NCBI RefSeq assembly: GCF_003334815.1
Contig: NZ_QOWO01000028.1
DNA from: Escherichia coli
GTDB taxonomy: Bacteria; Pseudomonadota; Gammaproteobacteria; Enterobacterales; Enterobacteriaceae
Length of the DNA: 53,280 nt
Strand: one strand, 5' to 3'
Part shown: positions 3,401-44,252 of the stretch, in pieces
Position numbering within the stretch: the first letter of the stretch is position 1
Layout: every line of letters starts with the position of its first letter
Program-made: the position numbers and the translations under genes
Notes under the pieces: model-generated
What the model was told of the DNA's origin: nothing
Seen by the model: only the letters and a program-made list of their open reading frames with translations
Databases searched by the model: none

Positions 3401-3503
3401 GCTTCTCTCCATTCACTGATAAGGCGATCACCTTAGCCTGAAATATGATGAAGGAAAACTGAAGAATGCCAGGTGATTTCTGCATCACCTGGCATGAAAG
3501 GGA

Positions 3504-12017: not shown

Positions 12018-12094
<77 letters not shown>

Positions 12095-12102
12095 AATTCG
12101 AA

Positions 12103-12131
12103 AAGCCTGCTCAACGAGCAGGCTTTTTTGC
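12103..12131 (+). terminator. Intrinsic terminator after proK
   Basis: AAGCCTGCTC-AACG-AGCAGGCTT hairpin followed by TTTTTT. Confidence 0.7.
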
Positions 12132-38601: not shown

Positions 38602-40098
38602 ATGCAGGGCACAAAAATTCGACTTTTAGCGGGCGGTTTGCTGATGATGGCCACTGCTGGCTATGTGCAGGCAGATGCGCTCCAGCCTGATCCAGCATGG
38701 CAACAGGGGACGCTTTCCAACGGTTTACAGTGGCAAGTGCTGACCACCCCCCAGCGTCCCAGCGATCGTGTTGAAATTCGCCTGCTGGTTAATACCGGTT
38801 CGCTCGCCGAAAGTACACAACAGAGCGGTTACAGTCACGCCATCCCTCGTATTGCGCTAACGCAAAGCGGTGGCCTTGACGCAGCACAGGCGCGTTCATT
38901 GTGGCAGCAGGGGATCGACCCTAAACGCCCGATGCCGCCGGTAATTGTCTCTTATGACACCACGCTGTTTAATCTGAGTTTGCCCAATAACCGTAACGAT
39001 TTGCTGAAAGAAGCGCTCTCTTATCTGGCAAATGCCACTGGCAAATTGACCATCACACCAGAAACCATCAACCACGCGCTGCAAAGTCAGGACATGGTGG
39101 CAACCTGGCCTGCCGATACTAAAGAGGGCTGGTGGCGCTATCGTCTGAAAGGGTCAACCTTGTTAGGTCACGATCCTGCCGATCCGCTGAAACAACCCGT
39201 TGAAGCGGAAAAAATTAAAGATTTCTATCAGAAATGGTACACCCCGGATGCAATGACGCTACTGGTGGTGGGAAACGTGGATGCGCGCTCGGTTGTCGAC
39301 CAAATAAACAAAACGTTTGGCGAACTGAAAGGCAAACGTGAAACGCCAGCTCCGGTGCCGACGCTTTCTCCGCTGCGTGCGGAAGCGGTGAGTATTATGA
39401 CTGACGCGGTGCGTCAGGACCGGTTATCTATCATGTGGGATACGCCGTGGCAGCCGATTCGTGAATCAGCCGCACTGCTGCGCTACTGGCGTGCGGACCT
39501 GGCCCGCGAGGCGCTGTTCTGGCATGTTCAGCAAGCGTTAAGTGCCAGTAACAGCAAAGACATCGGTCTTGGATTTGACTGCCGTGTGCTGTATCTGCGT
39601 GCGCAGTGTGCCATCAACATCGAATCACCAAACGACAAGCTGAACAGCAACCTTAATCTGGTGGCGCGTGAACTGGCGAAGGTTCGCGATAAAGGTCTGC
39701 CGGAAGAAGAGTTCAATGCGTTAGTGGCGCAAAAGAAACTGGAGCTGCAGAAACTGTTTGCCGCCTATGCACGAGCTGATACCGATATTCTGATGGGTCA
39801 GCGGATGCGTTCGTTGCAAAATCAGGTTGTCGATATCGCGCCGGAGCAATATCAGAAACTGCGGCAGGATTTCCTTAATAGCCTGACGGTAGAGATGTTA
39901 AATCAGGATCTGCGTCAACAGTTGTCGAATGATATGGCGTTAATACTGCTGCAGCCGAAAGGCGAGCCGGAATTTAACATGAAAGCGTTGCAGGCGGTCT
40001 GGGATCAAATCATGGCCCCATCTACCGCCGCTGCGACCACCTCTGTCGCCACGGATGACGTACATCCTGAAGTGACGGATATTCCACCTGCACAGTAA
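38602..40098 (+). CDS. yhjJ: M16-family peptidase-like periplasmic protein YhjJ (498 aa)
   Basis: Signal peptide plus 498-aa pitrilysin-like fold; position after dctA. Confidence 0.85.
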   Translation: MQGTKIRLLAGGLLMMATAGYVQADALQPDPAWQQGTLSNGLQWQVLTTPQRPSDRVEIRLLVNTGSLAESTQQSGYSHAIPRIALTQSGGLDAAQARSLWQQGIDPKRPMPPVIVSYDTTLFNLSLPNNRNDLLKEALSYLANATGKLTITPETINHALQSQDMVATWPADTKEGWWRYRLKGSTLLGHDPADPLKQPVEAEKIKDFYQKWYTPDAMTLLVVGNVDARSVVDQINKTFGELKGKRETPAPVPTLSPLRAEAVSIMTDAVRQDRLSIMWDTPWQPIRESAALLRYWRADLAREALFWHVQQALSASNSKDIGLGFDCRVLYLRAQCAINIESPNDKLNSNLNLVARELAKVRDKGLPEEEFNALVAQKKLELQKLFAAYARADTDILMGQRMRSLQNQVVDIAPEQYQKLRQDFLNSLTVEMLNQDLRQQLSNDMALILLQPKGEPEFNMKALQAVWDQIMAPSTAAATTSVATDDVHPEVTDIPPAQ

Positions 40099-40193
40099 TG
40101 CCTGATGGTGATGAGTTAGCACAACCATCAGGTATTTATGGATGAGCTGGATAGAGGGGTAACACTTTATCCAGCCTTTTGCATATGCTGCGT

Positions 40194-41123
40194 TTACGCT
40201 GGCATCGCCTCACGCGGGATAATCGCGCCGCGATACTGAATAACGGTACTTGCGGTCAGGTGCCCACGTTTCGCCGCGTCTTCCGCGCTGCCGCCTGTCA
40301 GACGTACCGCCAGATAACCGGCACTGAAAGAGTCGCCAGCTGCGGTGGTATCGATCACTTTTTCTTTCGGCAGTTTCACCGCCGGAACATCCACTAACCC
40401 TTCGCCAGCAATGGACACCAGGCAAGAATCCGCCCCGCGTTTCACCACCACTTCTTTCACGCCCGCGTTATGGGTGCGCGCAATGACGTCTTCCACCGGC
40501 TGTTGACCCCACAGCGCGTCTTCGTCGTCCAGCGTCAGGAAGGCGATATCCGTGCATTCCAGCATTTGTTGGTACACCTGCTGTGTCTCTTCTTTGCTGG
40601 CCCACAGGCGCGGACGATAGTTATTGTCGAAAATCACTTTTCCGCCGTTGGCGCGGCATTCGCGCAGCAGGGAAAGCAGCTTTTCGCGGCTGGTCGGGCT
40701 TAAGATCGCCAGGCTAATCCCGCTCAGGTAGAGATAATCGAAATTCGCCAGCTCTTCGCAAATCGCCGCAGACTGCTCACTCTCCAGCCAGAATTTGGCG
40801 GCGGCTTCGTTCCGCCAGTAGTAGAACGTACGCTCGCCGGTGCTGTCGGTTTCAATGTAGTAAAGGCCCGGCAGACGGTTTTCCATCCGTTGGGTCAGGG
40901 AAGTATCAACGTTCTCGCCGTGCCAGGCGTCCAGCATCTGCTGGCTAAAACTGTCCGTTCCCAGCGCCGTTACGTAATGAACGGTTAATGCCGCAGGATC
41001 GACCTGACGGGCGATATAGACGGAAGTGTTCAGGGTATCGCCGCCGAAACCGCGCTTAACGTCCGCGCCTTTCTCGGAAAGCTCAATCATGCATTCGCCA
41101 ATCACGGCAATCTTTTTGGACAT
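40194..41123 (-). CDS. kdgK: 2-dehydro-3-deoxygluconokinase KdgK (309 aa)
   Basis: PfkB/ribokinase-family sugar kinase; start trimmed to MSKKIAVIGECMIEL (track ORF extended 116 codons upstream). Confidence 0.92.
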   Translation of the reverse strand: MSKKIAVIGECMIELSEKGADVKRGFGGDTLNTSVYIARQVDPAALTVHYVTALGTDSFSQQMLDAWHGENVDTSLTQRMENRLPGLYYIETDSTGERTFYYWRNEAAAKFWLESEQSAAICEELANFDYLYLSGISLAILSPTSREKLLSLLRECRANGGKVIFDNNYRPRLWASKEETQQVYQQMLECTDIAFLTLDDEDALWGQQPVEDVIARTHNAGVKEVVVKRGADSCLVSIAGEGLVDVPAVKLPKEKVIDTTAAGDSFSAGYLAVRLTGGSAEDAAKRGHLTASTVIQYRGAIIPREAMPA

Positions 41124-41189
41124 AGTCGTGAACCTGATCTGTAAAAAATTAGCGTTAGTTTGCGCTGTGGTGGTTTGCTGGTCAACCAT

Positions 41190-41208
41190 ATTAAAACAGT
41201 GTTCCATT
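41190..41208 (-). promoter_or_regulatory. Candidate KdgR operator in the kdgK promoter region
   Basis: ATTAAAACAGTGTTCCATT matches the KdgR consensus AATRAAAYRNYRTTTYATT, as I recall it, at 17 of 19 positions; about 70 bp upstream of the kdgK ATG. Confidence 0.4.
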
Positions 41209-41279
41209 ATTTTTTTGAGCCAGAACGTATTCCTGAAAGATTCCGTTGTGGAGTGAGGAAATTTACCCCGGCCAGGCGG

Positions 41280-41306
41280 TAAAGTTCTGCCCTTACGCGC
41301 CGATAA
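41280..41306 (+). promoter_or_regulatory. Sigma-28 (FliA) class 3 flagellar promoter for pdeH
   Basis: TAAAGTTC-N11-GCCGATAA against consensus TAAAGTTT-N11-GCCGATAA, about 50 bp upstream of the pdeH ATG. Confidence 0.65.
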
Positions 41307-41354
41307 TCTTTGTCGAGTCCGGGCAGCATCACTTTTAAACACAGGACATCTTTG

Positions 41355-42122
41355 ATGATAAGGCAGGTTATCCAGCGAATAAGCAACCCTGAAGCAAGCA
41401 TCGAGAGCTTGCAGGAACGGCGTTTTTGGTTGCAGTGTGAGCGTGCTTACACCTGGCAGCCGATCTATCAAACATGCGGGCGGTTAATGGCCGTGGAGCT
41501 ATTAACGGTGGTCACGCATCCCTTGAACCCTTCGCAACGCCTGCCGCCGGATCGCTATTTTACTGAAATCACCGTCAGCCATCGGATGGAGGTTGTGAAA
41601 GAGCAGATTGATTTGCTGGCGCAAAAAGCCGACTTCTTTATAGAGCACGGCCTGCTGGCATCGGTCAATATTGATGGCCCTACGCTCATCGCCCTGCGTC
41701 AGCAACCAAAAATCCTGCGCCAGATTGAGCGTCTTCCCTGGCTGCGTTTCGAACTGGTGGAGCATATCCGTCTGCCGAAAGATTCAACCTTTGCCTCGAT
41801 GTGTGAATTTGGCCCGCTGTGGCTGGATGATTTTGGTACCGGGATGGCAAATTTCTCTGCGCTAAGTGAAGTGCGTTATGACTACATCAAAATCGCGCGA
41901 GAACTGTTTGTGATGCTGCGTCAGTCGCCGGAAGGACGCACACTCTTTTCTCAGCTTTTACATCTAATGAATCGCTATTGTCGCGGGGTGATTGTCGAGG
42001 GCGTAGAAACGCCGGAAGAGTGGCGTGATGTTCAGAACTCGCCCGCATTCGCCGCACAAGGCTGGTTTCTTTCACGCCCGGCACCGATAGAAACGCTGAA
42101 TACGGCGGTTCTGGCGCTATAA
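41355..42122 (+). CDS. pdeH: c-di-GMP phosphodiesterase PdeH (YhjH, EAL domain, 255 aa)
   Basis: Stand-alone EAL-domain protein (ELLTVVTHP...); start trimmed to MIRQVIQRIS. Confidence 0.92.
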   Translation: MIRQVIQRISNPEASIESLQERRFWLQCERAYTWQPIYQTCGRLMAVELLTVVTHPLNPSQRLPPDRYFTEITVSHRMEVVKEQIDLLAQKADFFIEHGLLASVNIDGPTLIALRQQPKILRQIERLPWLRFELVEHIRLPKDSTFASMCEFGPLWLDDFGTGMANFSALSEVRYDYIKIARELFVMLRQSPEGRTLFSQLLHLMNRYCRGVIVEGVETPEEWRDVQNSPAFAAQGWFLSRPAPIETLNTAVLAL

Positions 42123-42191
42123 GCTGCCTCATTTTCCGCCTGGCTGGACTATCTTTAGGACTGGCACAGGAAGAATATGAGGAAGCGAACG

Positions 42192-44252
42192 ATGAGCAAG
42201 GCAGGCAAAATAACCGCTGCGATTTCAGGGGCTTTCTTGTTGTTGATTGTCGTGGCGATCATTTTGATTGCAACTTTTGACTGGAATCGACTCAAACCGA
42301 CTATCAACCAGAAAGTCTCTGCGGAGTTGAATCGTCCGTTCGCTATCCGTGGCGATCTGGGCGTGGTGTGGGAGCGGCAAAAACAAGAAACTGGCTGGCG
42401 CAGCTGGGTGCCGTGGCCCCATGTACACGCGGAAGACATCATTCTTGGCAATCCACCGGATATTCCCGAAGTCACGATGGTGCATTTGCCACGCGTAGAG
42501 GCAACGCTGGCCCCGCTGGCGCTGCTGACCAAAACGGTCTGGCTGCCGTGGATCAAGCTCGAAAAGCCCGACGCGCGCCTGATTCGCCTCTCTGAAAAGA
42601 ACAATAACTGGACGTTTAATCTTGCCAACGATGATAACAAAGACGCGAATGCAAAGCCGTCGGCATGGTCGTTTCGGCTGGATAATATTCTTTTCGATCA
42701 AGGGCGGATCGCCATTGATGACAAAGTAAGCAAAGCGGATCTGGAGATTTTTGTTGATCCCTTAGGCAAGCCGCTGCCGTTCAGCGAAGTTACTGGATCG
42801 AAAGGTAAAGCGGATAAAGAAAAGGTGGGCGATTACGTTTTTGGCCTGAAGGCGCAGGGACGATATAACGGTGAACCGCTCACGGGTACGGGAAAAATAG
42901 GCGGTATGCTGGCGCTGCGTGGCGAAGGGACGCCGTTTCCGGTACAGGCTGATTTCCGCTCTGGTAACACCCGTGTTGCTTTTGATGGCGTCGTGAATGA
43001 CCCAATGAAGATGGGCGGTGTCGATTTACGGCTTAAATTTTCTGGCGATTCACTGGGTGATCTCTATGAACTGACGGGCGTTCTGCTGCCCGATACCCCG
43101 CCGTTTGAAACGGATGGTCGGCTGGTAGCGAAAATCGACACTGAAAAATCGTCGGTCTTTGATTATCGCGGTTTTAATGGGCGAATTGGTGATAGCGATA
43201 TCCACGGTTCTCTGGTCTACACCACCGGAAAGCCACGACCAAAACTGGAAGGTGATGTCGAGTCGCGGCAATTGCGGCTGGCGGACCTGGGACCGTTGAT
43301 TGGCGTTGATTCCGGGAAAGGGGCAGAAAAGTCGAAACGGTCTGAACAGAAGAAGGGCGAAAAAAGCGTTCAGCCTGCGGGCAAAGTGCTGCCTTATGAC
43401 CGCTTCGAAACCGATAAATGGGACGTTATGGATGCCGATGTTCGCTTCAAAGGGCGGCGCATTGAGCATGGCAGTAGCCTGCCGATTAGCGATCTTTCTA
43501 CTCATATCATCCTCAAAAATGCTGACCTGCGCCTGCAACCGCTGAAATTTGGCATGGCGGGCGGCAGCATTGCGGCGAATATTCATCTGGAAGGCGATAA
43601 AAAGCCGATGCAGGGGCGGGCAGATATTCAGGCTCGTCGACTGAAACTGAAAGAACTGATGCCCGATGTGGAACTGATGCAGAAGACGCTGGGGGAAATG
43701 AACGGTGACGCGGAACTACGCGGTAGCGGTAACTCGGTGGCGGCACTTTTAGGCAACAGTAACGGCAACCTGAAACTGTTGATGAATGACGGGCTGGTGA
43801 GCCGCAACCTGATGGAGATTGTTGGGCTGAATGTCGGCAACTACATTGTCGGTGCGATATTTGGTGATGATGAGGTGCGGGTGAACTGCGCGGCGGCGAA
43901 TCTGAATATTGCCAACGGCGTGGCGCGCCCGCAGATTTTTGCTTTCGATACTGAGAACGCGTTGATTAATGTTACCGGCACGGCAAGTTTTGCTTCGGAA
44001 CAGCTGGATTTGACTATTGATCCGGAGAGTAAAGGAATTCGGATTATCACACTGCGTTCGCCGCTGTATGTGCGGGGGACGTTTAAAAATCCGCAGGCTG
44101 GGGTGAAAGCCGGACCGCTGATTGCCCGTGGTGCTGTTGCTGCGGCACTGGCAACGCTGGTAACACCGGCGGCGGCGTTACTGGCACTGATCTCACCTTC
44201 CGAAGGGGAGGCTAATCAGTGTCGGACGATTTTGTCGCAGATGAAGAAGTGA
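42192..44252 (+). CDS. yhjG: AsmA-family protein YhjG (686 aa)
   Basis: N-terminal TM anchor plus a large periplasmic AsmA-like domain; start at MSKAGKITAAISGAF. Confidence 0.88.
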   Translation: MSKAGKITAAISGAFLLLIVVAIILIATFDWNRLKPTINQKVSAELNRPFAIRGDLGVVWERQKQETGWRSWVPWPHVHAEDIILGNPPDIPEVTMVHLPRVEATLAPLALLTKTVWLPWIKLEKPDARLIRLSEKNNNWTFNLANDDNKDANAKPSAWSFRLDNILFDQGRIAIDDKVSKADLEIFVDPLGKPLPFSEVTGSKGKADKEKVGDYVFGLKAQGRYNGEPLTGTGKIGGMLALRGEGTPFPVQADFRSGNTRVAFDGVVNDPMKMGGVDLRLKFSGDSLGDLYELTGVLLPDTPPFETDGRLVAKIDTEKSSVFDYRGFNGRIGDSDIHGSLVYTTGKPRPKLEGDVESRQLRLADLGPLIGVDSGKGAEKSKRSEQKKGEKSVQPAGKVLPYDRFETDKWDVMDADVRFKGRRIEHGSSLPISDLSTHIILKNADLRLQPLKFGMAGGSIAANIHLEGDKKPMQGRADIQARRLKLKELMPDVELMQKTLGEMNGDAELRGSGNSVAALLGNSNGNLKLLMNDGLVSRNLMEIVGLNVGNYIVGAIFGDDEVRVNCAAANLNIANGVARPQIFAFDTENALINVTGTASFASEQLDLTIDPESKGIRIITLRSPLYVRGTFKNPQAGVKAGPLIARGAVAAALATLVTPAAALLALISPSEGEANQCRTILSQMKK

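Follow-up and report, generated by a model that had tools for sequence, protein, structure and literature searches.

How the genes kdgK and pdeH of Escherichia coli are controlled from the DNA that separates them is the question raised by this locus: the two genes are transcribed away from each other, and their spacer might hold two separate sets of control signals or a shared one. The DNA analysed here is a stretch of 53,280 nucleotides (termed the window below), which runs opposite to the standard MG1655 sequence as its reverse complement; window position w corresponds to ~3,718,565 − w in NC_000913.2, within 2 nt, as judged from a published motif centre. Window positions 40100-42200 agree with E. 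coli K-12 MG1655 at 100% identity; 5423 of the 5426 complete E. coli genomes carry the locus. According to the RefSeq annotation, the other neighbours are yhjG, which lies downstream of pdeH, and yhjJ, which is convergent with kdgK. Since the kdgK ATG (minus strand) reaches to 41123 and the pdeH ATG begins at 41355, positions 41124-41354 are the exact divergent spacer, and the sequence-only reading of this DNA, which had described a control region of roughly 230 bp, had its coordinates right. A search of the region 40000-42500 against Rfam gave no family match, even at E ≤ 1.

Table 1. Genes and control elements of the kdgK-pdeH locus (positions in the window; arrows give the direction of reading on the minus strand).
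Feature	Position	Strand	Basis or remark
kdgK (2-dehydro-3-deoxygluconokinase) CDS	41123→40194	-	RefSeq annotation of identical K-12 sequence
pdeH (formerly yhjH; c-di-GMP phosphodiesterase) CDS	41355→42122	+	RefSeq annotation of identical K-12 sequence
kdgK-pdeH divergent intergenic control region	41124-41354 (231 bp)		between kdgK ATG (- strand, ends 41123) and pdeH ATG (41355)
Sigma-28 -35 element TAAAGTTC	41280-41287	+	motif match, FliA matrix; part of published yhjH FliA motif
Sigma-28 -10 element GCCGATAA	41299-41306	+	motif match, FliA matrix; 11 nt after -35
Predicted pdeH transcription start	41313-41316	+	from usual sigma-28 geometry; 5' UTR ~40 nt
pdeH Shine-Dalgarno AGGA	41343-41346	+	8 nt before ATG; ACAGG invariant in 16 genera, following A nearly so
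KdgR-type (IclR-family) operator AATGGAACACTGTTTTAAT	41190-41208	-	consensus match, regulon matrix, conservation
Putative kdgK sigma-70 -35 TTGACC	41180-41185	-	conserved spacing to operator; inside sigma-70 ChIP-chip region
Putative kdgK -10 CAAACT	41157-41162	-	after 17-nt spacer; predicted start near 41150
kdgK Shine-Dalgarno-like AGG	41133-41135	-	sequence; 9 nt before ATG
Conserved block ATTTTTTTGAGCCA (T7-GAGCC)	41209-41222		pdeH side of operator; mostly >=80-95% identical, 77 species

On the pdeH side, the motif TAAAGTTC-N11-GCCGATAA (41280-41306, plus strand) faces pdeH and lies 48 nt ahead of its ATG. It matches 15 of the 16 positions of TAAAGTTT-N11-GCCGATAA, and a search of the 53 kb window with this pattern, allowing ≤3 mismatches, returned it as the single match (1 mismatch). 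For a quantitative comparison a matrix was built from the 51 other FliA ChIP-seq sites that Fitzgerald et al. (2014) give in their Table 2, with yhjH left out. On this leave-one-out matrix the pdeH site scores 23.8 bits and the runner-up among all positions of the 53 kb window 14.8, making 41280-41306 the best position by 9 bits; by matrix score it is fourth among all 52 published FliA sites. The exact score distribution gives 1.6e-9 per position for a site of this quality, so that 1.7e-4 such hits would be expected in the window and 0.015 in a 4.6-Mb genome.

Published data place FliA at this site. The exact 28-mer TAAAGTTCTGCCCTTACGCGCCGATAAT is the listed yhjH FliA promoter (Fitzgerald et al., 2014, PMC4183435 Table 2; correction PMC4203485); its ChIP-seq FAT score is 67, i.e., 67-fold above threshold, and the peak centre lies ~28 nt downstream of the motif centre, which is typical for that study (PMC4183435). 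Normalised yhjH RNA amounts to 511 in motile MG1655 and drops to 2 once fliA is deleted (PMC4183435), and a 9.6-fold yhjH drop upon fliA deletion was reported by Zhao et al. (2007, PMC1935009). In ChIP-chip data (PMC3923258 supplement), a sigma-28 region corresponds to about 41238-41950 of the window and a sigma-70 region to about 40964-41288; the former is on the pdeH side and the latter on the kdgK side, thus each sigma factor is found at the expected side. Match, matrix score, published FliA site and fliA dependence together confirm the near-consensus FliA promoter that had been read from the letters alone, and that pdeH/yhjH belongs to the flagellar regulon was known before (cited in PMC4183435). 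No mapped start site for pdeH or kdgK was found in the published data searched. Sigma-28 promoters usually start transcription a few nt past the -10 element, and the start given in Table 1 follows this geometry.

The pdeH module is accordingly a class 3 flagellar promoter, TAAAGTTC-N11-GCCGATAA, read by sigma-28 (FliA) RNA polymerase. Like the class 3 FliA promoters of E. coli and Salmonella, for instance those of tar, motA, flgM, tsr and ycgR, it combines a TAAA-type -35 element, 11 nt and the -10 element GCCGATAA; it shares with them FliA binding in vivo and strict FliA dependence, both published, and its score is among the top handful. Nothing material differs from these promoters, except that pdeH encodes a c-di-GMP phosphodiesterase and is not a structural or chemotaxis gene. 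Being read by FliA, pdeH, the gene of the main c-di-GMP phosphodiesterase, would be expressed only once the hook-basal body is complete and FliA has been released. Its transcript would begin with ~40 nt of unstructured leader that has the AGGA ribosome-binding site at its end.

A leader hairpin (GAGUCC/GGACAUC) hiding the ribosome-binding site was considered and rejected, with zero consensus pairs in 27 leaders and an E. coli leader no stabler than shuffles (z = +0.75). A reverse sigma-28 promoter was likewise dismissed, as no -10 element resembling GCCGATAA follows the inverted copy of TAAATTTC. Two inverted repeats in the spacer, 41287-41299/41314-41326 and 41258-41267/41278-41287, were treated as chance, since one or both arms of each fall in alignment columns that differ between genera. 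At the other end of the gene, a simple scan of the DNA from the pdeH stop to the yhjG start (42123-42176) showed no hairpin resembling an intrinsic terminator, so that the sigma-28 transcript may continue into yhjG. Elsewhere in the window (12078-12105, plus strand), the 28-mer TCCTCTATCACCGACCAAATTCGAAAAG is a weak FliA ChIP-seq site inside proK (Fitzgerald et al., 2014, PMC4183435), flagged by the authors themselves as probably not genuine.

On the kdgK side, the 19-mer AATGGAACACTGTTTTAAT consists of the half-sites GGAAC and GTTTTAA around a variable 3-nt centre. The distance between it and the kdgK ATG is 66 nt and its centre lies 76 nt upstream, in agreement with the earlier estimate of about 70 bp. 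Compared with the degenerate KdgR consensus, which we take to be AATRAAAYRNYRTTTYAWT, the 19-mer has 1 mismatch on the minus strand and 2 on the plus strand; the latter reproduces the previously stated 17 of 19 positions. When the strict consensus AAATGAAACAnTGTTTCATTT (as quoted in PMC5559549) is used, the 21-mer at the kdgK box agrees with 15 of the 20 specified positions, and the K-12 boxes upstream of kdgT, kduI (two sites) and eda with 17, 19, 17 and 12. The raw count of 15 is weak taken alone, because 15/20 is also attained elsewhere in the window, at 1520. A symmetrised KdgR matrix was derived from the four K-12 sites (kdgT, the two kduI sites and eda). It ranks 41190-41208 first in the window with 26.6 bits, followed by a runner-up with 9.5; the small number of training sites inflates the absolute score, but the ranking is informative.

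Conservation of both motifs was determined in a scan with one genome per species, which yielded 80 pdeH loci, 77 of which had enough flanking sequence and were used. The pdeH loci come from Escherichia, Salmonella, Citrobacter, Enterobacter, Lelliottia, Leclercia, Kosakonia, Yokenella, Atlantibacter, Franconibacter, Siccibacter, Pseudocitrobacter and others. Each of the 77 loci has a divergent kdgK upstream of pdeH; the spacer measures 205-249 bp, with a single exception of 421 bp. The sigma-28 signature TAAAGTT-N12-GCCGATAA is found in 77/77 species, and so is the operator core T[AT]AAAC-N3-GTT[CT][CT]; the 11-nt sigma-28 spacer and the central 3 nt of the operator vary. An alignment of 16 genera gave the same picture: no variation occurs in the -35 and -10 elements of the sigma-28 promoter, in either half-site of the operator, in GTCAA or in the ribosome-binding site of pdeH, and variable are the DNA between the sigma-28 elements, the central 3 nt of the operator and the ~70 nt separating the two modules. 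Of 5426 E. coli genomes, 5283 have an identical copy of the 47-mer 41176-41222; the sigma-28 region was found as an exact 40-mer in 2517 genomes by megablast, which required a 28-nt exact word, so that shorter matches are not counted.

The exceptional 421-bp spacer belongs to Citrobacter amalonaticus S646 and results from an insertion of ~187 bp in the pdeH leader (~1840-2000 of the retrieved locus L007). The inserted DNA lies between the sigma-28 promoter and the ribosome-binding site, and a CAGGAC-like sequence is present at both junctions.

These data bear on whether the KdgR-like 19-mer is simply a chance AT-rich palindrome in an AT-rich spacer, as the second 15/20 match at 1520 and a degenerate-pattern search without enrichment over shuffles (≤3 mismatches) could suggest. 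Against this speak the dinucleotide shuffles of the spacer, only 0.6% of which reach 15/20 strict-consensus matches (P≈0.006), the 17-bit lead on the regulon-derived matrix and the genetic control of kdgK by KdgR described below. Preservation of both half-sites in 77/77 species around a variable centre effectively refutes a chance origin, the probability of which we regard as practically nil.

Genetic data, from Northern blots and transcriptomes, connect kdgK with KdgR in two genera. The kdgK mRNA is increased in an E. coli kdgR deletion strain (PMC6958661) and in an E. coli strain that lacks kdgR after a 39-gene deletion (PMC6892915). In Salmonella, 2-keto-3-deoxygluconate (KDG) induces kdgK, the expression of which is undetectable in its absence, and deletion of kdgR makes the expression constitutive (PMC4784465). 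The literature searched contained no KdgR footprint or gel shift at the E. coli kdgK site, and its main texts did not give the sequence of the kdgK KdgR site. Comparative genomics is said to have predicted such a site earlier. We infer that the 19-mer is the site used by KdgR at kdgK: without KDG, KdgR would occupy the box and block polymerase contacts at and upstream of the -35 element, and KDG would free KdgR from the box.

The kdgK box resembles the KdgR operators of Dickeya dadantii and of E. coli kduI, kdgT and eda P2 (consensus AAATGAAACAnTGTTTCATTT), since all are imperfect palindromes of 19-21 bp with half-sites 3 nt apart and precede genes of the KDG pathway whose repression is lost in kdgR mutants. 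It differs from the consensus in having GGAAC for GAAAC and GTTTTAA for GTTTCAT, departures that are conserved in most of the 77 species. It also differs in its likely position, as it would abut the -35 element from upstream and not cover the core promoter. An extended 40-bp palindrome (GGTCAAC + TTGAGCC) was considered as a general KdgR tetramer operator and rejected, the outer elements being absent at K-12 kdgT, kduI and eda.

Two further observations concern sites of this type. Positions 1510-1539 of the window form an inverted repeat, AATGAAACAA / TTGTTTCATT, whose 10-nt arms match perfectly and are separated by 10 nt; it ends 7 nt before the ATG of a 276-aa open reading frame (1546-2376), probably yiaF by map position. 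In its arms the KdgR/PlaR half-sites TGAAAC and GTTTCA are present exactly, but with a distance of 14 nt between them where an operator has 3, a difference of about one helical turn. CRP sites have the pattern TGTGA-N6-TCACA, and a CRP-site-like sequence, TGTGGTTTTGATCACT, is located just downstream of the KdgR box upstream of K-12 kdgT (~3440-3475 of the retrieved locus L085); nothing comparable was seen in the kdgK spacer.

The box need not be KdgR's alone, since PlaR (YiaJ) binds the kdgK-pdeH spacer in vitro. This IclR-family paralogue has kdgK among its genomic SELEX targets, gel shifts confirmed twelve target probes, and the authors proposed co-regulation by PlaR and KdgR (PMC6958661). 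The PlaR box of E. coli K-12, ATnTGAAACnnnGTTCAnTT, is an IclR-family palindrome of the same type as the kdgK box, and PlaR probably uses the same box as KdgR. Sequence alone does not assign the box to one of the two proteins. The 19-mer could even be mainly a PlaR operator, or one used equally by PlaR and KdgR, in which case two repressors and two sets of plant-derived signals would meet at one box. We consider this possible, though rather doubtful: the genetic evidence of repression is stronger for KdgR, with deletion of kdgR alone derepressing kdgK in E. coli and Salmonella, and presence of the box in all 77 species fits the broadly distributed KdgR regulon.

The reading as a KdgR operator raises the question of which promoter is repressed. 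A generic sigma-70 scan at 9/12 found no site in the spacer or in 40050-42300, and the kdgK promoter was therefore deduced from conservation. The hexamer TTGAC[C/G/T] is found exactly 6 nt past the operator core in 75/77 species; in E. coli, 4 nt separate the operator 19-mer from TTGACC. At a fixed spacing of 17 nt follows a second hexamer, CACACT, CAAACT (E. coli), CAGACT, CAAAAT or GAGAAT; all keep nAnAnT, and the spacer between the hexamers varies. The likely kdgK core promoter is thus TTGACC-17-CAAACT, with a predicted start near 41150, a leader of ~27 nt and the box centred near -49. Within this leader, AACC at 41131-41134, which reads GGTT on the kdgK strand, shows little or no variation among the 16 genera. 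The promoter would be of a weak sigma-70 type, with KdgR abutting the -35 element and covering the AT-rich region upstream, where it would block the contacts of sigma region 4 and of the alpha subunit. Against this model, the putative -10 element is weak (3/6), the generic scan gave no promoter in the spacer, and -49 is an unusual place for the operator of a simple repressor.

Alternatively, the kdgK promoter might lie inside the operator, with an extended -10 element TGnTTTAAT (41198→41190) covered by KdgR and a poor -35 element TCAAAA (41218→41213). In E. coli this arrangement scores as well as TTGACC-17-CAAACT, the hexamer TTTAAT reaching 5/6 with a TG upstream, and its -35 element would be covered by the conserved T7-GAGCC block, which would explain the conservation of the GGCTCAAAAAAA block. 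The comparison between genera points the other way. About half of them have CG in place of TG, and the hexamer has lost its critical last T, reading TTTAAA, in Atlantibacter, Franconibacter and Enterobacter sp. Ag1; these same three keep TTGAC-17-CACACT or GAGAAT. In addition, the invariant TTGAC would be placed at about +1 to +6, where conservation is not expected. We therefore rank the promoter inside the operator second and consider it unlikely, and TTGACC-17-CAAACT is used as the kdgK promoter in the following.

One conserved element is accounted for by neither the kdgK nor the pdeH module. The block ATTTTTTTGAGCCA, which adjoins the operator toward pdeH, is conserved to about the same degree as the operator and roughly mirrors GGTCAAC (41180-41186) about 41199/41200; no comparable block is present beside the K-12 KdgR sites of kdgT, kduI or eda. 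As the box lies exactly between the back-to-back -35-like hexamers TTGACC and TTGAGC, the T7-GAGCC block could serve a KDG-gated promoter for pdeH. That it belongs to a weak sigma-70 promoter of this kind, reading into pdeH, seems barely credible to us; if it were true, the supply of plant-derived hexuronates would be linked to c-di-GMP breakdown and motility independently of FliA.

More generally, the two regulons would be coupled if KdgR, bound between TTGACC on the minus strand and TTGAGC on the plus strand (41215-41220), also gated a weak sigma-70 promoter toward pdeH. The near symmetry of the two hexamers about 41199/41200, the strong conservation of TTGAGCC and a spacing between box and sigma-28 promoter of 88-91 nt in 67 of the 77 species would fit such a coupling. 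It is nevertheless highly improbable, as there is no conserved -10 element 16-18 nt after TTGAGC, yhjH RNA is down to 2 without FliA, and pdeH is not among the genes reported to be derepressed upon loss of kdgR (PMC6892915). Moreover, three Pseudocitrobacter loci have ~31 nt fewer between the modules, so that 58 nt instead of ~89 separate the box from the sigma-28 -35 element.

The sequence-only reading had stated that the two regulons share this region. This holds for physical adjacency; evidence for cross-regulation was not found. The unconserved middle, the Pseudocitrobacter deletion, the absence of pdeH from the genes reported to be derepressed upon loss of kdgR and the near absence of pdeH RNA without FliA indicate that sharing here means adjacency and not co-regulation. 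The spacer thereby resembles other divergent regions with independent back-to-back promoters, in which outward-facing promoters with their own specificity determinants flank an unconserved middle; in contrast to shared-operator divergons, no evidence was found of either regulator acting on the other gene. Taken together, the locus very probably contains two independent control modules placed back to back, FliA/pdeH and KdgR/kdgK.

Both motifs are real and far beyond chance, and their assignments are supported by published binding and expression data together with deep conservation. Divergent control of kdgK and pdeH is already known textbook regulation of E. coli, and since the control of both genes is established, the finding mainly demonstrates that textbook signals were read correctly from sequence. 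The putative kdgK core promoter, the PlaR binding of the spacer and the apparent independence of the modules are the additions made here. For the cell, pdeH keeps c-di-GMP low so that flagella turn, and FliA control ties its expression to completion of the flagellum; kdgK, under KdgR, feeds the products of hexuronate and pectin breakdown into the Entner-Doudoroff pathway.
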